From: Escherichia phage BF17 | Sequence record: MW822008.1 | DNA length: 64,000 bases | Direction: 5' to 3' (one strand) | Shown: one piece after another, positions 3,710 to 60,809 of the stretch | Numbering within the stretch: the stretch's first letter is position 1 | How the letters are laid out: the number at the start of each line of letters is the position of its first letter | The notes under the pieces: generated by a model | What the model was told of the DNA's origin: nothing | Seen by the model: only the letters and a program-made list of their open reading frames with translations | Databases searched by the model: none | Program-made: the position numbers and the translations under genes

Positions 3710-4395
3710 TTAAAGATTTAGATAGAATTTTATATGTACTAAGGGGTGTAATTACATTACATCCACAAATCAATCGAATTGAAAGTACATTTCAGTTGGA
3801 GTCAAGAGAAACTCCATATTCACATATATCAAATGTAGTTGGTTCACTCAGTACTGAAGACTCGTCTTACGATATTTGTGTATGTGAAGTACAACCAAGT
3901 TCGGATCTTGGATTTGCTATTTTTGATAAAAATCAAAATCTCATTAGTATGTTTCAGTGCAATAATCCTTTTTGGAAAACATGCCTGTATCCAGAGTGGG
4001 CTATGCTTGATCCAACCAAGAGTACCATTAAAGTTTATGACTCTAAAAATGATGAAGTCGTTATTGATTTAGATGAGTCAATGTCAGAGGAAGAACACTT
4101 TCAGCTAATGATGATGCGTGCTATGCCTGAATACAATGCAATGATTAACACAGTGCAATACATTAAGGATACCATGCCAGCGTTGCGTACACATGAGTTT
4201 TGTCATCCGGTATTGTATGAACATCTAGATTTAGACTTCAGTACTATTAAATTTAAAGATAGTGTTAAAAAATATATTCAAGAGAATGTTAAATTTGATT
4301 TTATTAGTACTATGAACAATAATCCAAAAACTAATTTTAGGCATCAGTACAATGAATCTTTGTCTAATGGACGTGATACCAGTTGGTGGAAATAA
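3706..4395 (+). CDS. hypothetical protein
   Basis: TTG start overlapping the upstream TGA. The alternative-frame ORF 3839..4072 was rejected. Confidence 0.6.
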   Translation: MIKDLDRILYVLRGVITLHPQINRIESTFQLESRETPYSHISNVVGSLSTEDSSYDICVCEVQPSSDLGFAIFDKNQNLISMFQCNNPFWKTCLYPEWAMLDPTKSTIKVYDSKNDEVVIDLDESMSEEEHFQLMMMRAMPEYNAMINTVQYIKDTMPALRTHEFCHPVLYEHLDLDFSTIKFKDSVKKYIQENVKFDFISTMNNNPKTNFRHQYNESLSNGRDTSWWK

Positions 4396-11001: not shown

Positions 11002-11745
11002 ATGAAACACTTCTTAGAAGTAACTGTACCTGATGATAAAGATTTATACATTGTAGGTGATTTGCATGGTAATGGTAAACTATGGGATGCTACAGTGAAA
11101 GAATTTGGTATTACACACAATGATTATGTTTTCAGTGTAGGTGATATTATCGACCGTGGAGAACAAAATTCAAAGCTCCTTTTTGAATTTTTGTTCGGAG
11201 AAAATCGTTACATGATTGCGGGTAATCATGAGATGATGTGCGTTGATTCGGAAACACTTCGAGATTGGTATCATTGTTGGATAAGTAATGGTGGTGATAA
11301 ATTCCTTGATGAAGTTGGAGGAACAGGCATTCAATTCTTTCGTCAGTACTTAAAGGATCTCCCTATGATTATCCAAATCAATCACCGAGGATTGAAGATT
11401 GGGTTAGTTCATGCTGGAGTTCCGTTGGAATATACAACATGGGAACGATTTGTTAATGGGACAAAATCACTTAGTGCTGATATAATTGATAAGTGCTTGT
11501 GGGATAGAAAAACATTCGATTATTGTAGAACTAATAATACATATTATGCACCTAAGTTAGATGGAGTGCATTGTGTCTTTAGTGGACATACAGCAGTTAC
11601 AGACCCACTCATTTACGGTAATCGCATTTGGATTGATAGTCAGTTCTTGACGGGTGACTTAACTCTCGCTACTCCACAAAGTGGTGGGATGAGATACTTA
11701 CGTAAAGAAAAAGATGAGTACTCATTCAATCGTTTCAAAAGGTAA
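11002..11745 (+). CDS. Ser/Thr protein phosphatase (lambda PP-like metallophosphoesterase)
   Basis: Contains motifs GDLHGN, GDIIDRG and GNHE. ATG at 11002 follows GGAG. Confidence 0.8.
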   Translation: MKHFLEVTVPDDKDLYIVGDLHGNGKLWDATVKEFGITHNDYVFSVGDIIDRGEQNSKLLFEFLFGENRYMIAGNHEMMCVDSETLRDWYHCWISNGGDKFLDEVGGTGIQFFRQYLKDLPMIIQINHRGLKIGLVHAGVPLEYTTWERFVNGTKSLSADIIDKCLWDRKTFDYCRTNNTYYAPKLDGVHCVFSGHTAVTDPLIYGNRIWIDSQFLTGDLTLATPQSGGMRYLRKEKDEYSFNRFKR

Positions 11746-32954: not shown

Positions 32955-33057
32955 ACTTGTCATAGGTTGTAGTGCACTTGCTGCATATATGCTTTTTTCC
33001 GCACCAACCAATGTATTACTGTTAATTTGGGCAGTTGTTATATTAGCAGTACTTTAA
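32941..33057 (+). CDS. very small hydrophobic peptide (38 aa)
   Basis: My own translation: MRLAKLVIGCSALAAYMLFSAPTNVLLLIWAVVILAVL. It ends at the terminator at 33057. Confidence 0.4.
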   Translation: MRLAKLVIGCSALAAYMLFSAPTNVLLLIWAVVILAVL

Positions 33058-33079
33058 AGCACCCTAGTGGTGCTTTTTC
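33057..33079 (+). terminator. intrinsic terminator
   Basis: AAGCACC-CTAGT-GGTGCTT with a T run. Confidence 0.7.
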
Positions 33080-33113
33080 TATTTGTGCAAATAAAAACCA
33101 ATGTGACTTTTCC

Positions 33114-33127
33114 TTGATATAGGTCAA
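33114..33127 (+). promoter_or_regulatory. FNR/CRP-family box TTGAT-ATAG-GTCAA
   Basis: Matches 9 of 10 positions of TTGAT-N4-ATCAA. Centred at 33120.5, which is 41.5 bp upstream of the start predicted from the -10 at 33150..33155. Confidence 0.55.
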
Positions 33128-33149
33128 GAGAAATAACCTGTTCTGACGC

Positions 33150-33155
33150 TATAAT
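33150..33155 (+). promoter_or_regulatory. -10 hexamer TATAAT of the nrdD promoter (no good -35)
   Basis: Perfect TATAAT. The -35 region is poor, as expected for an activator-dependent class II promoter. Confidence 0.5.
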
Positions 33156-33216
33156 GTTGTCTGGTGATATTAAATATCTTCACCCCCAGATGATTTCAAA
33201 ATACAAGGAATGTACA

Positions 33217-35022
33217 ATGCAATTAGATAAATTATATACTGACGTAACGAATTTCCTCAATCAGAGCAATACTGATCTTACCAACGAAAATGCGAACAAA
33301 GATGCGAAATGCGTCAATACACACAGGGATTTACTTGCAGGTATCCTATCTAAGCATTATTCACAAGATGTTATTCCAAATGAGCTAATGCAGTGGCATA
33401 ATGATGGTTATGGTCATATTCATGATTTAGACTACTATATCAGCCCATTAACCAACTGTTGCTTAGTTAACTACCCAGATATGCTAAAAAATGGATTTAC
33501 CATTGGTTGTGCCAAAATTGAAGAACCAAAGAGTTTTAGTGTAGCATGTACAGTACTGACACAGATTGTACAAGCTGTAGCTAGTTCCCAATACGGCGGT
33601 CAATCGTTGGCTCACATTGATGTCGGTTTAGAACCTTACGTTCAAAAGTCATGGGATAAGCTGTTAGAAAAACAAAAGAAATATAATCTAAGTGATGAGT
33701 TCATTGAAGAAGAATTACGAAAAGAAGTATACGATGGATGTCAAACATTACTTTACCAGACTAATTCAATGATTAGCACTAATGGACAAGCTGCATTCAT
33801 TTCTCTTAGTTTAGGGCTTAATACTTCTAAATTTGGTAAATTAATCACTGAACAGTACTTAAAAGTTCATGAGAATGGTTTAGGTAAAGATAAGATTACT
33901 CCAGTGTTTCCTAAAGTAATTTTCTTTTTACAAGATGGTATAAACATGAATACCAATGATAGTAATTATGACCTTAAACAGTTAGCTATGCGTTGTGCAT
34001 CAAAACGAATCTACCCAGACTTTGTTTCAGTTCCATTAAATCACAAAGTGACGGGAAGTAGTAGTACTGCTGTAACACCGATGGGATGTCGTTCATTCTT
34101 AGGAAAATGGGAAGATTCAAATGGAAATGAACAATACAACGGTCGTTTCAATTTAGGTGTGGTTTCTATCAATTTACCTCTAATTGCTCTTGAGAGTGAT
34201 TCTGATGGAGAGTTTTTTGATAAGATAGACGAGCATATGAATATTGCATATCGTGCTCAGATGAACCGTGTGGAGCGTTTAAAAGGCACTAAAGCGAAGC
34301 AGAATCCAATTTTGTTCATGGAAGGTGCATTAGCACGTTTAGGTGCAGAAGAAACCATTGACAAGCTATTTTACAATGGTTATGCTAGTATTAGTATTGG
34401 TTATGTTGGTCTTGTTGAATGTTCAGAAATCCTCACTGGTTCTATCAGTAAGGAGTTTTGTATGTCAGTACTGAATTATATGAAAGTAAAATGTGATGAG
34501 TTCAAAAAAGAAAGTAATATTGCTTTTAGTCTATATGGAACTCCAGCAGAGTCGCTTTGTTATAAATTTGCACGTTGCATTGAAGCAAAATATCCTTCAG
34601 TACTAAAACGTGATTACATCACAAATTCCTTCCATCAACCAGTATGGGTAGAAAGTTCTCCATTTGATAAATGGAGTTATGAAGAAGGGTTTGCTTACCT
34701 AAGTAACGGTGGAAACATCAGTTATGTTGAATCTCCAAACTTAGCAAACAACATTCAAGCACTTGAAACATTAGTTAACTATGCGTACACTAAGATACCA
34801 TATTTTGGTATTAACCAACCAGTTGACCATTGTTATGAATGTGGCTTCCAGGGTGAGTTCAGTGTAGATAAACATGGTTTCCACTGTCCTGTATGTGATA
34901 ATCGTAATGAGAAGACAATCTCAGTGATTCGTCGTGTTTCTGGGTACTTGGGTAATCCTTCTTCGCGTGGCTTCAATAAAGGCAAGCAACAAGAGTGTTG
35001 TGAGCGTATTCAGCACAAATAA
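33217..35022 (+). CDS. nrdD: anaerobic ribonucleoside-triphosphate reductase
   Basis: NENANKD...RDLLAGI...HIHDLDYY parallels the T4 NrdD N-terminus as I recall it. The C-terminus has the Zn site CxxC...CPVC and the glycyl-radical motif RRVSGYLG. Start moved to ATG 33217 (AAGGA upstream) because track start 33154 overlaps the -10. Confidence 0.9.
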   Translation: MQLDKLYTDVTNFLNQSNTDLTNENANKDAKCVNTHRDLLAGILSKHYSQDVIPNELMQWHNDGYGHIHDLDYYISPLTNCCLVNYPDMLKNGFTIGCAKIEEPKSFSVACTVLTQIVQAVASSQYGGQSLAHIDVGLEPYVQKSWDKLLEKQKKYNLSDEFIEEELRKEVYDGCQTLLYQTNSMISTNGQAAFISLSLGLNTSKFGKLITEQYLKVHENGLGKDKITPVFPKVIFFLQDGINMNTNDSNYDLKQLAMRCASKRIYPDFVSVPLNHKVTGSSSTAVTPMGCRSFLGKWEDSNGNEQYNGRFNLGVVSINLPLIALESDSDGEFFDKIDEHMNIAYRAQMNRVERLKGTKAKQNPILFMEGALARLGAEETIDKLFYNGYASISIGYVGLVECSEILTGSISKEFCMSVLNYMKVKCDEFKKESNIAFSLYGTPAESLCYKFARCIEAKYPSVLKRDYITNSFHQPVWVESSPFDKWSYEEGFAYLSNGGNISYVESPNLANNIQALETLVNYAYTKIPYFGINQPVDHCYECGFQGEFSVDKHGFHCPVCDNRNEKTISVIRRVSGYLGNPSSRGFNKGKQQECCERIQHK

Positions 35023-35030
35023 GGTAAATT

Positions 35031-35363
35031 ATGGATTTAAAGCCAATTGTGGTTAACAAATACAAAGAACCGTATGATGTGTATATTGGACGTGGGTCTA
35101 AATGGGGAAACCCATTTACCCATATTAAAGATAAACAAACCAAAGCCGAGTTCATTGTTAGTACAAGAGAAGAATCAATTGAAAAATTCAGAGAATACAT
35201 TATTGAACGTATTTCTTGTGGAGAAGTTAAGATTGATGAATTACTTGAACTCGCAGGGAAACGCCTTGGTTGTTTCTGTAAACCAAAATCATGTCACGGC
35301 GATGTTCTTGTCGAAATAGTGAGTGCAATATTAGATGAATTACCAGACGATAATCAAGGATGA
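35031..35363 (+). CDS. DUF4326-like protein
   Basis: YDVYIGRGSKWGNPF...LGCFCKPKSCHGDVL matches my recollection of DUF4326. Confidence 0.6.
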   Translation: MDLKPIVVNKYKEPYDVYIGRGSKWGNPFTHIKDKQTKAEFIVSTREESIEKFREYIIERISCGEVKIDELLELAGKRLGCFCKPKSCHGDVLVEIVSAILDELPDDNQG

Positions 35364-35805
35364 TTTAGTAAATGGAGAGGGCGTTCGCTGCTCTTTATTT
35401 GTTAGTGGGTGTTCGCACGGATGTGATGGTTGCTTCAATGAAGAAGCATGGGATTACAGAAGTGGTCAATTGTTCAGTACTGAAACAGTTGAGATTATAC
35501 TACAGGAACTAAAAAAACCATATGTTAGTGGTTTGTCACTTCTAGGCGGCGATCCATTAATGAAAAAGAATATAGATGAAGTTTTAAATCTATGCAAAGT
35601 AGTTAAAGAAACTTATCCTAGTAAAACTATTTGGTGCTGGAGTGGGTATACTTTAGATGAGATTATGAAAAATCATGCTAAAGATATACTTCAGTACTTA
35701 GATGTATTAGTTGATGGTAAGTTTATTGAGTCCGAAAAGAATTTAAAATTACCTTTCCGTGGTTCAAATAATCAAAGAATACTATATAAAAATAAAGATT
35801 TTTAG
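35335..35805 (+). CDS. nrdG: anaerobic ribonucleotide reductase activating protein (radical SAM)
   Basis: Contains DLVNGEGVRCSLFVSGCSHGCDGCFN, the CxxxCxxC cluster. Confidence 0.88.
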   Translation: MNYQTIIKDDLVNGEGVRCSLFVSGCSHGCDGCFNEEAWDYRSGQLFSTETVEIILQELKKPYVSGLSLLGGDPLMKKNIDEVLNLCKVVKETYPSKTIWCWSGYTLDEIMKNHAKDILQYLDVLVDGKFIESEKNLKLPFRGSNNQRILYKNKDF

Positions 35806-35809
35806 CATA

Positions 35810-35832
35810 AGCACCCGTTGGGTGCTTTTTTA
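35810..35832 (+). terminator. intrinsic terminator after nrdG
   Basis: AGCACCC-GTT-GGGTGCT followed by T6. Confidence 0.75.
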
Positions 35833-35881
35833 TTATGTATATAAATACATTAACTAATATCTAATTTATAAGGGATATATA

Positions 35882-38578
35882 ATGTCAAAGAAAATATATG
35901 GTGGCTTAGATGTCACACATAATGTGACAGTTAATGGTAAAAGAACAATTCAAGGAATAAATGAACAAGTTTTTGATTCCAACGGTAACTTGGAATTAGA
36001 TACTTATTCCAGAGATGAAGTACTAGATATAGTAAGTATGATGCCAATCTCCCATTATGGTTCACAAAACTATCTACCTGCGGGTGTTTCTGGGGATTTC
36101 AATGGTGCATCAGAAAACCAGTCACAACGTAGAAATAAAATTTTATTAGAAAACGATGGTACACTAGTACTTTTACGTAGTGGGACAAACGGTAGTGTTG
36201 AGGGATTATTTTATTCATATTTGGCTAACGCATTATCAGTTGATGACATGAGCCGTACAATTAACACTAGTCGTCAATACAAGCCTGGGTTTTTTGGTTC
36301 AAATAGAGTTGCGATTGGTTTATACAATACTGATCCAAATATTTTACTCGGTAGATATATTGATACTTCTAACAGTACTAATGGTTTGTTCATATCAATT
36401 ACCAATGGTACATTAGATGATAAATTGCATACTGGTTTTTTCGTTAACCAAGCAGATATATCACCTGAAGGTGGTATTGAATATGCTATGATGGCAGAAG
36501 ATGGTTCTATATATGTTTTTAACGTACTTAATGAAAATAACCAACTACAATTAGTTGTTGTAAAAGTTGTTTATAATATAAGCAATGGTACTTATACTGC
36601 AACTCGAATTACTGGATGGACTACTAAAACATTTTATAACACGACATATTCTGCACAAAATAATATGGTTATTACTAATCAGGTAACATCAACAAATATT
36701 GCTGATAAACCTTATGTGTATGTTCCACAAAATCTACGTGGTATTGGGATTTACATGACATCAATTGATTTATATGTTGCACAGCAGCCAGGAACGCAGA
36801 ATTTCCGCTTTAGAATGAACGGGGACGCTTGGTTTACAATGGCAACATATAATACACGTCCACAGCATAGTTACAGTTTTGTGTTCAATATGAGTACTAA
36901 ACAATGTACATTAGATGCGGGTAACGATATTGGTTCATATCAAGCACCATTAGTTATAACTAATACTGGTTCGGCATTAGTTCCTACTGGTAACGTTTTA
37001 AATAACGATCCATTGTATAACCATGCAAATGCAAGAAACATTTATAGTTCATATTTTTATTTGAATTCTGGTGAAGCTTTTTGTACTACATGTCCAAACT
37101 TAGCAGAACCATTACTTATGCAAAAAGCTAAGTTTCCTATTCAAATAGTTTATAGTATGCTGAATGTCCGTGCTGTACTTTCTACTGACTTCAAAGGTGG
37201 TATAGTTCGCCCGTCTTTTGGTTCAGCGGTTGGTTCATTTATTAATGGTGTAGAATTACTACCAGATAACAGTACTAAACAATATTCACGTGCATCAGGT
37301 AGTGGTGGATTTAGACCATCATATGCAGTTCATAAAAGTACTCCTAATTTTACATTTAAATCATTATCTTTAGGAACAATACAAGGTTATGAACCTACAG
37401 TTGAACGTGCTAATGTTGATGATAATGCAAATAATAGAATTTTTATTAGTAGTATTTCTGGGTCAACTGTCACAACCAATGGTGGTATTTTTATGGTTGG
37501 GCAACGTTATTCACAATCATTATCCTATGATAAAAACTTAAATGGCACAGGAATTATAAGCGTTACACAATCAGTACTGGACAATTTTAGAAATACTGAA
37601 TATGCCAAAGTTCTAAGTGATTGGAATTTATCAGCACAAGCATACCGTGATATGACACTATTTGTTCCACAACAAACAGACATTCCAGCTTTTGTTATGT
37701 TGAGTACAATTACTAATGATTATAGAAACTATATTAGAATTGCTGAAGTTAATGTCAATACTAGAGTTGGTAATATTACATCTATTACATTTAAGCGTTT
37801 AGTACTTGAGAATACGTATGGTGATAACTTTACACCAACTGGGAATGGTTCGATTGCATCTTCTTCTGTTGGTTTGACCATATATGATGGTGGTTCATTC
37901 TACTTCATTGGTGGTTCTGACCCATTATCACATCCAACAATAGGTAATACTGCAACTCATCAATTTAGAGCATATGTAACTAAATCAACTGCACAATTTA
38001 CAAGTTTTATAATTACTGGATCTCATGCCAGTTATGAACAAGGAAGTCAACCAGCAGCATTACCTGGTATTGGTTTTGGAATTTTTGAACCAATGGATTA
38101 CTCAAATAAAATGACATTCAAAAAATATGGAACAACGATTGCAGACTATAATAACTGGACTGCACAAGGTAGCCCAATTAACGTAGTATCCCAGGACGTT
38201 GCTCAAGGGTTTATTGTATATTTTACAGAGGAAACACCAGTTATTCTTTCAGGTAAGTCATTTTCACTACCAGTTTCAAATATTGATTTGAGAACTATTA
38301 AGTCTAATCCAGCAAATACAACATTTTATGTATATGTTAAATTGGAACAAGGATTGGCAAACTATTACATAACTACTGATGTTATTTCTGAAACAGGGAC
38401 AACTGCATATAATATTTTTTGGATAGGTACAATTCAAACTAATGCAATTCAAATCGAAACAATTAATATACAAAAACGTTCCCGTTTAGATATATTTGGT
38501 GCTTCACTTGAATCAGCAGGTTCATCGTTCCCAGTTAGCTACGGTCTACCATCACAAACAGGAACCATAAACTGGTAA
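35882..38578 (+). CDS. tail fibre protein (long paralog 1)
   Basis: 898 aa, rich in Gly/Ser/Thr/Asn. Shares N-terminal, sub-terminal and C-terminal modules with 38590 and 39194. Confidence 0.7.
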   Translation: MSKKIYGGLDVTHNVTVNGKRTIQGINEQVFDSNGNLELDTYSRDEVLDIVSMMPISHYGSQNYLPAGVSGDFNGASENQSQRRNKILLENDGTLVLLRSGTNGSVEGLFYSYLANALSVDDMSRTINTSRQYKPGFFGSNRVAIGLYNTDPNILLGRYIDTSNSTNGLFISITNGTLDDKLHTGFFVNQADISPEGGIEYAMMAEDGSIYVFNVLNENNQLQLVVVKVVYNISNGTYTATRITGWTTKTFYNTTYSAQNNMVITNQVTSTNIADKPYVYVPQNLRGIGIYMTSIDLYVAQQPGTQNFRFRMNGDAWFTMATYNTRPQHSYSFVFNMSTKQCTLDAGNDIGSYQAPLVITNTGSALVPTGNVLNNDPLYNHANARNIYSSYFYLNSGEAFCTTCPNLAEPLLMQKAKFPIQIVYSMLNVRAVLSTDFKGGIVRPSFGSAVGSFINGVELLPDNSTKQYSRASGSGGFRPSYAVHKSTPNFTFKSLSLGTIQGYEPTVERANVDDNANNRIFISSISGSTVTTNGGIFMVGQRYSQSLSYDKNLNGTGIISVTQSVLDNFRNTEYAKVLSDWNLSAQAYRDMTLFVPQQTDIPAFVMLSTITNDYRNYIRIAEVNVNTRVGNITSITFKRLVLENTYGDNFTPTGNGSIASSSVGLTIYDGGSFYFIGGSDPLSHPTIGNTATHQFRAYVTKSTAQFTSFIITGSHASYEQGSQPAALPGIGFGIFEPMDYSNKMTFKKYGTTIADYNNWTAQGSPINVVSQDVAQGFIVYFTEETPVILSGKSFSLPVSNIDLRTIKSNPANTTFYVYVKLEQGLANYYITTDVISETGTTAYNIFWIGTIQTNAIQIETINIQKRSRLDIFGASLESAGSSFPVSYGLPSQTGTINW

Positions 38579-60373: not shown

Positions 60374-60790
60374 ATGAATTATGTTTGGGCAGATGTAGTA
60401 AAATCTCTCGTATCAACACATGATGTTGATTTACCAGATAGTCTGGTATTTAACAGATGGTACTATCCAAACCCAGAGGACTGTAACGTTGGAATTGGAT
60501 TTTTTATTAATGATAAATCTAATTTGTTTGGATTAATTGAAGATGAGACAAAATCCAACCTTATATTCTCGATTGAGTTGAATGCTGATCACATAAAATA
60601 CTACACCAATAAAATGGACGAAGACGATGGAGATGTTATAATCCCAGCAGAAATAGACGAAGCTTCATTTTTTCAGTTATCATTGATTTATGATCTATCT
60701 AACATTACTTATGATAATGTGAAAGACCTTTTTATATTGTACAATAAAATGTATAATTACTTTTTAAGACCTTTTTATATTGTACAATAA
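60374..60790 (+). CDS. hypothetical protein; C-terminus altered by a 43-bp tandem duplication
   Basis: GGAG upstream. The last 7 codons (RPFYIVQ) come from the second repeat copy read out of frame. Confidence 0.6.
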   Translation: MNYVWADVVKSLVSTHDVDLPDSLVFNRWYYPNPEDCNVGIGFFINDKSNLFGLIEDETKSNLIFSIELNADHIKYYTNKMDEDDGDVIIPAEIDEASFFQLSLIYDLSNITYDNVKDLFILYNKMYNYFLRPFYIVQ

Positions 60791-60809
60791 AATGTATAAT
60801 TACTTTTTA
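60724..60809 (+). repeat. perfect 2 x 43-bp tandem duplication
   Basis: AGACCTTTTTATATTGTACAATAAAATGTATAATTACTTTTTA occurs at 60724..60766 and again at 60767..60809. Each copy carries TGTATAAT. Confidence 0.95.

Follow-up and report, generated by a model that had tools for sequence, protein, structure and literature searches.

The anaerobic ribonucleotide reductase genes of Escherichia phage BF17 lie behind an FNR-type box that is kept in every Rak2-like jumbo phage examined, and the phage probably turns on the nrdD-DUF4326-nrdG unit only without oxygen. FNR is encoded by E. coli and the other enterobacterial hosts and is active as a [4Fe-4S] dimer only in the absence of oxygen. In the reading that we find reasonably likely, positions 33114-33127 of the window (the whole 64,000-nucleotide stretch of record MW822008.1 that was analysed) would be a working site for host FNR, with class II activation and anaerobic expression of the three genes. 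An earlier, sequence-only reading of this DNA had proposed that host FNR controls them. Comparative evidence gives that central idea strong support: the box is conserved, of FNR type and set in a promoter geometry that is unique in the genome; FNR control itself is what we infer from this pattern.

The unit opens with nrdD (33217..35022, plus strand), which codes for an anaerobic class III ribonucleotide reductase of 601 aa with matches to the Pfam families NRDD (PF13597, E=1.4e-166) and Gly_radical. On the same strand follow a DUF4326 gene (35031..35363; PF14216, E=6e-24) and nrdG (35335..35805), coding for the radical-SAM activase (Fer4_12, PF13353, E=3e-53, and Radical_SAM). Pfam thereby confirms the identities that the sequence-only reading had given to the three genes. 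A ribosome-binding site, AAGGAA, is found at 33205..33210 on the plus strand, where the relatives align with AAGGA or GGAG. The unit is closed by a plus-strand terminator at 35809..35827, detected by the terminator scan and annotated in phage G17. The scan also returned an intrinsic terminator upstream of the unit, AAAGCACCC-TAG-TGGTGCTTT followed by a T run (33056..33076, plus strand), which is annotated in the records of phages G17 and UE-S1 and conserved in the alignment. This predicted terminator would close the gene cluster before the unit and shield nrdD from read-through.

Between this terminator and nrdD lies the box, TTGAT-ATAG-GTCAA (TTGATATAGGTCAA; 33114..33127, with no strand assigned), recognised by its sequence and by the conservation of its half-sites. 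The match to the consensus TTGAT-N4-ATCAA had been put at nine of ten positions, and re-reading gives the same count with the core TTGA-N6-TCAA intact (8/8). The sole deviation of this phage, GTCAA for ATCAA, does not affect the core, and the ATCAA half-site is present in UE-S1 and RaK2. By its TTGA half-site the box is classed as FNR-type and not as CRP-type (GTGA); a search for the CRP site TGTGA-N6-TCACA with up to two mismatches gave no match at the nrdD locus. Likewise, no NrdR box pair (16-bp acaCwAtATaTwGtgt, up to three mismatches) was detected near 33040-33220, and the whole window holds three NrdR-box matches versus 4.3 expected. A tblastn search of 50,697 phage records with E. coli FNR found no homologue in this phage group, the only hit being a Listeria fragment.

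Taken in one genome alone, the box is weak evidence and only suggestive, because about ten boxes per 64 kb are expected and the composite of box and TATAAT arises in about 6.5% of simulations. Boxes with at most one mismatch number 16 in the window (9.8 ± 2.7 expected), and a perfect box at position 3923 falls inside an ORF. The whole 352-kb genome, counted on the assembled 351,992-bp genome of this phage type, contains 64. The combination with a perfect TATAAT at a distance of 21-23 nt is seen a single time in the window and a single time in the genome. In Markov simulations its mean number is 0.067 per 64 kb, and 6.5% of the runs contain at least one. Of the 64 genomic boxes, only that of nrdD lies between genes and has a -10 at 21-23 nt; as none of the others shows promoter geometry, the idea of a broader FNR regulon in the phage was rejected. 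The significance of the box comes from its place before nrdD and from its conservation.

Conservation is the main evidence that the box has a function, and its footprint over at least five phage genera strongly supports this. The set examined comprised Asteriusvirus, RaK2, GAP32, the Eneladusvirus phages of Yersinia and Erwinia, and 13 IMG/VR loci. In every one of these Rak2-like jumbo phages an FNR-type box stands 90-112 nt before nrdD, in most of them as a perfect TTGAT-N4-ATCAA (10/10). TTGAT and TCAA are invariant across Asteriusvirus, RaK2 (Klebsiella), GAP32 (Cronobacter), fHe-Yen9-03 (Yersinia), pEa_SNUABM_47 (Erwinia) and uncultured relatives, while the N4 spacer takes eight different forms and the flanks share only 37-55% identity between groups. 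In 14 diverse leaders the half-site columns are 96% identical versus 61-69% for the flanks. The pattern TTGA...TCAA is found in 15 of 16 leaders of relatives, the remaining one (L139) reading ATGA in the left half. Conservation in related phages had been named as a check by the sequence-only reading, and it strongly supports the proposal, the box being kept across at least five genera with divergent N4 and flanks.

Four leaders of the tabulated set came only from a pattern scan and are ascertainment-biased; the test was for this reason repeated with a protein-based search, in which the 13 IMG/VR loci were chosen by NrdD identity, independently of the box pattern. Where NrdD is at least 70% identical, the box is present in 13/13 loci at -90 to -103 and perfect in ten of them; among more distant nrdD loci, 13/67 have a box within 300 nt. 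From IMG/VR the pattern scan recovered 12 nrdD loci together with 16 contigs that belong to a single unrelated family, plus a few chance matches in coding regions, and the metagenome scan added one new relative only, L139. In two unrelated phage contigs of higher GC content (L098 and L103), a perfect box is followed after 22 nt by TAACCT or TACCCT before nrdD. The phi92-like phage ESCO9 also carries a 9/10 box, which is ambiguous because it lies within the end of the upstream CDS and a terminator follows it.

The promoter core of this phage is consistent with activation by FNR. A perfect -10 hexamer, TATAAT (33150..33155, plus strand), begins exactly 22 bp 3' of the box. The -35 position reads GAGAAA/AGAGAA and the promoter scan found no sigma-70 pair ending at 33155, in agreement with the earlier description of a perfect TATAAT without a usable -35. 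Counting from the -10, transcription is predicted to start on the plus strand at T33162, G33163 or G33164 (33162..33164), which would place the box centre at -41.5 to -43.5. The distance of 41.5 bp that had been calculated earlier holds arithmetically for +1 = 33162. In E. coli, the site lies at -41.5 ± 4 in 19 of 23 FNR-activated promoters (PMC3688515). A class II geometry is likely in this phage.

Among the relatives, TATAAT at 22 nt is invariant in Asteriusvirus and RaK2, and three leaders (L041, L045 and L039) have it at 23 nt with a TGA extended -10. Altogether, this phage and eight other leaders carry TATAAT at 22-23 nt. In the three leaders with the 23-nt spacing, the promoter also contains a phage-type GGGAC(A/G) element and, given this element and the extended -10, may not need FNR. 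The clade of GAP32 and Eneladusvirus shows at 23 nt only weak (TATTTT, TATTAT) or unusable (TTGAAT, GTTTTT) hexamers, with a terminator-like hairpin and T run between the box and the expected -10. The class II assignment proposed earlier thus fits this phage and eight leaders, but is weak or absent in the GAP32/Eneladusvirus clade, and an element at 43 nt, TAAATA, competes with it. A generic phage promoter motif was rejected as an explanation: the recurring promoters of the window are of two classes, GGGACA-N16-TATAAT and TTGAC-N17-TATAAT, and the nrdD promoter belongs to neither. RpoD-like promoters have been described in Rak2-like phages (PMC5259590), and PA5oct, a related jumbo phage, relies on the RNA polymerase of its host (PMC7318152). 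Rak2-like phages also encode their own sigma factors (PMC5259590), and RNA polymerase may be remodelled by them.

The invariant TAAATA (33171..33176, plus strand) begins 43 nt after the end of the box and is followed by TCACC at 33180-33184. Of 16 distinct leaders, 15 have a spacing of exactly 43 nt, among them L065, whose recovery did not depend on the pattern; L139 differs in having 44 nt and a full TATAAATA as the element. The most strictly kept distance is hence that from box to TAAATA, while that from box to TATAAT varies between 22 and 23 nt. Within the window, the arrangement TAAATA..TCACC is unique. The element could act as an alternative -10, as the core of a late-type promoter or as a leader element.

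The same region contains an imperfect palindrome, GGTGATAT-TAA-ATATC(TT)CACC (33163..33184, plus strand), which had been pointed out before and is indeed present in the sequence. It is lineage-specific: the palindrome occurs in the window and in UE-S1, its left arm is not conserved elsewhere, and the only conserved parts within it are TAAATA and (T)CAC(C). The predicted fold of the window leader RNA (-5.9 kcal/mol, z = +0.83) is no better than that of shuffled sequences, RNAalifold on 9 and on 14 leaders gave no consensus structure (0 kcal/mol), and an Rfam search of the leader had no match at E ≤ 1. A conserved RNA hairpin or known RNA in the leader was rejected on these results. The suggestion that the palindrome serves as a repressor site or 5' UTR hairpin finds no support as proposed, since it is conserved neither as a palindrome nor as a hairpin.

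The fixed position of TAAATA raises the question of whether FNR might bind the box but act in a class I-like way, at about -62.5 to -64.5, with the -10 in the TAAATA(AT) region from 33171 onward and a start near 33183-33186, copying the unusual geometry of host nrdDG. The TATAAT at 33150 would then be a second or clade-specific promoter, and, with roughly two turns of the helix between the two positions, one FNR dimer could serve both starts. Several observations point this way. The element stays at 43 nt in 15/16 leaders while the intervening sequence diverges and TATAAT shifts by 1 nt, and the GAP32/Eneladusvirus clade has no good -10 at 22-23 nt. In E. coli, 44 nt separate the end of FNR site 2 from the -10 TAAAAT, and that site, at -64.5, is necessary and sufficient (PMC10425943). 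Furthermore, AATAAT occurs within TAAATAAT in Yen9-03, pEa47, L039 and L045, and the record of Yen9-03 predicts a -35 TTGAAT and a -10 GTAAATAAT there. However, TAAATA lacks the T at -7 required by sigma-70, and the better overlapping hexamers (TATCTT, TAAATT, AATAAT) are not present in all leaders. A class I-like arrangement also leaves unexplained why nine leaders have a perfect TATAAT at the class II distance, and this hexamer would fall at about -35 of the rival promoter. Moreover, class I FNR promoters are rare (1/23; PMC3688515), and L139 has a spacing of 44 rather than 43 nt. On balance, we regard this arrangement as rather unlikely.

TAAATA might instead supply the core sequence for a late promoter of the T4 type (TATAAATA/ATAAATA) that a phage gp55-like sigma recognises, which would add oxygen-independent late transcription of nrdD to that from the FNR promoter. 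This explanation, to which we likewise assign a low probability, concerns the downstream element and is compatible with class II activation by FNR. A gp55-like factor and predicted late promoters of the form ATAAATA have been reported in Rak2-like phages (PMC5259590), a TATAAATA stands at position 35840 of the window before a large ORF, and the divergent relative L139 has the full TATAAATA at its nrdD. Against it, the A at position 2 of the consensus is missing in 15/16 leaders (the window reads ATTAAATA), the dinucleotides that precede TAAATA among the leaders being AT, GT, TT, TC, CG and TG. An independent promoter would need no fixed distance of 43 nt from the box, and genes of nucleotide metabolism are usually early or middle.

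A third possibility is that the box is kept for a reason other than activation, i.e., as the operator of a phage regulator, as a site of FNR repression or inert FNR binding, or as the target of another host protein. In genome-wide studies, some FNR-bound sites have little effect on transcription (PMC1802558), and many proteins of this phage group are uncharacterised. Yet the pattern is the one that FNR recognition predicts, with fixed half-sites, a free N4 and TTGA rather than GTGA, and the box is placed 5' of the -10 without overlapping it, at the distance most often seen in activation. In addition, the host counterpart of nrdD is FNR-activated, and phage contigs of unrelated origin also carry this box before nrdD. 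No other promoter of the genome carries the box; a phage regulator with a single target is conceivable but less economical. We thus consider such an explanation improbable. A chance match without function, for which the expected number of boxes (about ten per 64 kb) and the composite with TATAAT in 6.5% of simulated windows might speak, is effectively refuted by conservation at the same place before the same gene, with divergent flanks, across at least five genera.

If class II activation by FNR is the correct reading, the upstream terminator would stop read-through into nrdD-DUF4326-nrdG, so that these genes would depend on their own promoter. As this promoter has a perfect -10 and no -35, host RNA polymerase would have to be helped by an activator. 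The contacts that it lacks would come from FNR, positioned some 41.5 bp before a start near 33162; this corresponds to class II activation and not to repression. The oxygen-labile glycyl-radical reductase and its activase would then be made mainly in anaerobic hosts, and the aerobic class I enzyme of the phage (NrdAB) would be used otherwise.

More tentatively, the leader comparison suggests a broader possibility, namely that the Rak2-like clade (at least five genera, with Escherichia, Klebsiella, Cronobacter, Yersinia and Erwinia hosts) may have wired one auxiliary metabolic operon into the FNR regulon through a two-part module of box, 43 nt and TAAATA. This module perhaps lets one dimer serve two starts, or couples FNR to a second factor such as a phage sigma. 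It would be, as far as found, the first described oxygen-responsive promoter of a lytic phage that depends on a host transcription factor, with the same solution apparently reached independently in L098 and L103. The literature search retrieved neither an account of a phage nrdD under FNR control nor transcription start or 5'-end data for the Asteriusvirus group.

Lytic phages are usually viewed as running a fixed, self-contained transcription programme. If FNR control is true, a large virulent phage would read the oxygen status of its host and choose NrdAB (aerobic) or NrdDG (anaerobic) for its supply of DNA precursors. This would bear on how phages replicate in the gut, a habitat of these coliphages and a place where phage therapy must work. 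It would also provide a simple case of host-regulon capture by a phage and a natural, anaerobically inducible phage promoter. The module of box, 43 nt and TAAATA is a concrete question raised by the comparison of leaders.

The closest parallels are found among the class II FNR promoters of E. coli, such as narG, dmsA, nirB, nrfA, yfiD/grcA and pflB, which serve anaerobic genes including those of glycyl-radical enzymes (PMC3688515). The phage promoter shares with them an inverted repeat like TTGAT-N4-ATCAA, a sigma-70 -10 and a poor or absent -35, and its predicted start would put the centre of the repeat at their distance of about 41.5 bp. Unlike them, it is located in the 350-kb genome of a virulent phage and not in a chromosome, and the invariant TAAATA at a fixed 43 nt sets it apart from the textbook class II arrangement.

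Other phages with the same enzyme genes do without such a box. None was seen before nrdD in T2, T5, an rV5-like phage or a Felix O1-like phage, and FNR control is therefore not a general need of phage nrdD genes. In these T2/T4-type, T5, rV5-like and Felix O1-like phages the surroundings of the gene also differ: nrdD overlaps its upstream neighbour in T2 and pangalan, stands behind a strong TTGACA/TATAAT promoter in T5 and begins 24 nt after a terminator in wV8.

A parallel of another kind comes from cyanophages, in which auxiliary metabolic genes are placed under host regulators, with pho boxes (PhoB) before pstS/phoA and with NtcA sites. In both cases a lytic phage carries the site of a host environmental sensor before a metabolic gene, whose expression tracks (or, for nrdD, would track) the state of the host. 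The two cases differ in regulator, signal (oxygen versus phosphate or nitrogen), host group and phage family.

For the enzyme system itself, the obvious reference is host nrdDG, which is FNR-activated (PMC2892513; PMC10425943) and whose promoter in E. coli and Salmonella has FNR sites at -64.5 and -33.5 and two NrdR boxes (PMC10425943). Phage and host share the enzyme system and, for the phage by prediction, the regulator. The phage nevertheless has one FNR box instead of two, no NrdR box and a perfect TATAAT at the class II distance. Its NrdD is only 44% identical to that of E. coli and is without the N-terminal region of about 95 residues, so the promoter did not simply come along with a captured host gene. 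No similarity is seen between the intervening sequences. The spacing between the end of the upstream FNR site and an A/T-rich hexamer, however, hardly differs: it is 44 nt in E. coli, where the hexamer is TAAAAT, and 43 nt in the phages, where it is TAAATA.

It is very probable that the 14-bp inverted repeat TTGAT-ATAG-GTCAA (33114-33127) upstream of nrdD in phage BF17 is a functional site for the host FNR protein and that the nrdD operon responds to oxygen. The associated promoter is most likely of class II, reading from the TATAAT at 33150-33155. Taken jointly, and judged from comparison of sequences, the two parts carry moderate confidence. The letters and coordinates of both elements, proposed in a sequence-only reading, were confirmed, with a gap of exactly 22 bp between them. 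The lack of a usable -35 element also held, as the position reads GAGAAA/AGAGAA, unlike TTGACA, and a promoter scan returned no sigma-70 pair there.

The region (G+C of the window, 33.6%) matches Escherichia phages SHEFM2K, slurp01, and phAPEC6 at 100% identity and 121Q and PBECO4 at 95-98%, all of them jumbo coliphages of 350 kb that belong to Asteriusvirus, a genus in the 'Rak2-like' group. Pfam matched the genes originally named, backing the identities of NrdD, DUF4326, and the NrdG-type activase. The box is truly intergenic, lying between nrdD and an intrinsic terminator (33056-33076); a second terminator from the same scan (35809-35827) closes the nrdD-DUF4326-nrdG unit. Just past the T run of the first terminator lies a palindrome, TTTGT(G/A)CAAA (33082-33091), which is conserved in Asteriusvirus and RaK2, while the GAP32 clade carries AAACGTTAAYCAA there instead. 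Directly past the nrdG terminator, the T4-type late promoter consensus TATAAATA occurs at 35840-35847, 35 nt ahead of an 898-aa open reading frame (35882-38578). The nrdD start was placed at 33217 on the + strand, preceded by AAGGAA. An in-frame ATG at 33154, within TATAATG, was reported by the ORF lister and would add 21 codons; the GenBank record of UE-S1 begins nrdD at this longer type of start. Its use is unlikely. The ribosome-binding site and homologue alignment favor 33217, and the longer start would sit upstream of the predicted transcription start.

The conservation of the box in related phages was examined by aligning the nrdD leaders of the divergent Asteriusvirus members UE-S1, ph0011, JNE01, and A4, Klebsiella phage RaK2, Cronobacter phage GAP32, Yersinia phage fHe-Yen9-03, Erwinia phage pEa_SNUABM_47, and one uncultured IMG/VR relative. 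Every leader contains the box, with perfect consensus in RaK2 (TTGAT-TTAA-ATCAA) and in GAP32, Yen9-03, and pEa47 (TTGAT-CTAG-ATCAA). TTGAT and TCAA do not vary, and the half-sites differ only at the opening base of the right half (G or A); the N4 spacer takes eight forms, and in the flanks identity between groups is no more than 37-55%. Column identity across 14 leaders reaches 96% in the half-sites versus 61-69% elsewhere. To avoid circularity, a second sample of IMG/VR nrdD loci was gathered by protein similarity alone; where NrdD was at least 70% identical, the box was found at -90 to -103 in 13/13 loci and was perfect in ten of these. A metagenome scan added one relative (L139, 70% identity) with a weakened box, ATGAT-TTAG-ATCAA. 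The FNR consensus is TTGATnnnnATCAA (PMC3688515; PMC10425943), and fixed half-sites around a free spacer, with TTGA in place of CRP's GTGA, are the pattern that FNR recognition would predict.

Within a single genome, the box with its TATAAT is only marginally above chance. Boxes with at most one mismatch number 16 in the window (9.8 +/- 2.7 expected) and 64 in the complete 351,992-bp genome of this phage type. The window and that genome each have a single case in which a perfect TATAAT follows 21-23 nt after a box; in Markov simulations, 6.5% of 64-kb sequences contained at least one. Every other box, among them the perfect one at 3923, either falls within a coding sequence or has no -10. It is the comparative evidence, rather than these counts, that decides against chance.

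The proposed class II geometry held in part. TATAAT follows the box by 22 nt in BF17, other Asteriusvirus members, and RaK2, and by 23 nt in three uncultured relatives (L041, L045, L039), where TGA (an extended -10) precedes it and GGGAC(A/G) directly abuts the box. Because 19/23 E. coli FNR-activated promoters have their site at -41.5 +/- 4 (PMC3688515), class II is the best reading for BF17. The geometry is weaker in the GAP32/Eneladusvirus clade (GAP32, Yen9-03, pEa47, and loci L044, L034, and L065), where the box is separated from the expected -10 by a terminator-like hairpin (ATACCCC...GGGGTAT) and its T run, and the hexamer at 23 nt is TATTTT, TATTAT, TTGAAT, or GTTTTT.

Elsewhere on the + strand of the window, a promoter-like motif, GGGACA-N16-(TGA)TATAAT, recurs, its extended -10 paired with a -35-like element specific to the phage (TATAAT at 1710, 23917, 26173, 51394, and 63103; looser copies at 11481, 16935, and 57748). 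The motif probably corresponds to the promoters reported in CBB and GAP32 as 'divergent RpoD-like', and its GGGAC(A/G) part is the one that stands immediately after the FNR box of L041, L045, and L039. Another promoter-like unit, ...ACTTTTTAAGACCTTTTTATATTGTACAATAAAATG-TATAAT, is tandemly duplicated (~43 bp) at ~60710-60800, with TATAAT at 60752 and 60795.

The poor hexamers of the GAP32/Eneladusvirus clade favor the main rival, a class I-like (-63-type) or dual-promoter arrangement with its -10 in the TAAATA region. TAAATA (33171-33176), followed by (T)CAC(C), is invariant and lies exactly 43 nt past the box in 15/16 distinct leaders; this spacing stays fixed even though the distance to the ATG ranges from 33 to 47 nt and the -10 moves by one base. 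In E. coli nrdDG, the essential -64.5 site (FNR site 2) ends 44 nt before the -10 TAAAAT, and for this reason the rival is kept beside class II. Alternatively, TAAATA could be the core of a T4-type late promoter, which in this group of phages has the consensus ATAAATA (PMC5259590). L139 has a full TATAAATA here, 44 nt from the box, but the other 15 leaders deviate from the late consensus at position 2. L139 is a 349-kb metagenome contig (Ga0308166_1000037) whose FNR box is short of one core base, and its lineage may be shifting from FNR toward late-promoter control. The imperfect palindrome described at 33163-33184 is present, but its suggested role as a repressor site or hairpin at +1 is unsupported in the form proposed: conservation is limited to TAAATA and (T)CAC(C) and does not extend to the left arm (GGTGATAT); the fold of the window's nrdD leader is no more stable than those of shuffled sequences (-5.9 kcal/mol, z = +0.83); RNAalifold gave no consensus structure for 9 or 14 leaders, individual hairpins ranging from 0 to -9.6 kcal/mol in differing registers; and an Rfam search of the leader gave no match.

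Among other phage nrdD loci, two unrelated, higher-GC IMG/VR contigs of 45-53 kb (L098 and L103; NrdD 42-44% identical) carry a perfect box (TTGATTTTAATCAA / TTGATCTCAATCAA), 22 nt, and TAACCT or TACCCT upstream of nrdD, and share the leader motif TCAGTAAAYRCTTAATGA. The two contigs seem to be a separate instance of FNR-type control of a phage nrdD. The box-22 nt-hexamer layout has apparently evolved more than once. No box precedes nrdD in T2, T5, an rV5-like phage, or a Felix O1-like phage. In the phi92-like Escherichia phage ESCO9 (L012, ~607-650), TTGACTAAGATCAA, 22 nt, and TAAAAT lie ahead of nrdD; this box overlaps the end of the upstream coding sequence and is followed by a terminator-like hairpin and the nrdD ribosome-binding site, leaving its meaning ambiguous. 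Sixteen IMG/VR contigs of an unrelated phage family (a subset of L021-L049) carry a perfect intergenic TTGATCCTAATCAA flanked by a radical-SAM-like gene and a 50-aa ORF (e.g., L023, 5369-5438). They fit the box-43-TAAATA pattern, yet TATAAT lies just 8 nt past the box, and the match is probably chance, counted repeatedly through relatedness.

A tblastn search of 50,697 phage records with E. coli FNR found no homologue except a Listeria fragment, so that it would be the host protein that reads the box. Both RpoD-like promoters and sigma factors of their own are reported for Rak2-like phages (PMC5259590), and PA5oct, a related jumbo phage, relies on the RNA polymerase of its host (PMC7318152). 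We found no prior report of FNR control of a phage nrdD in the searchable literature; the kind of promoter is well known, and its setting in a virulent jumbo phage is what is unusual. Capture of the host nrdDG promoter was rejected, as phage NrdD (33217-35022) is only 44% identical to E. coli NrdD, aligning from host residue 97 and lacking the N-terminal ~95 residues, and as the search of its promoter for an NrdR box found none and only one FNR box is present. The host nrdDG operon is activated by FNR through two sites, at -64.5 and -33.5 (PMC2892513; PMC10425943), whereas the phage promoter carries a single box.
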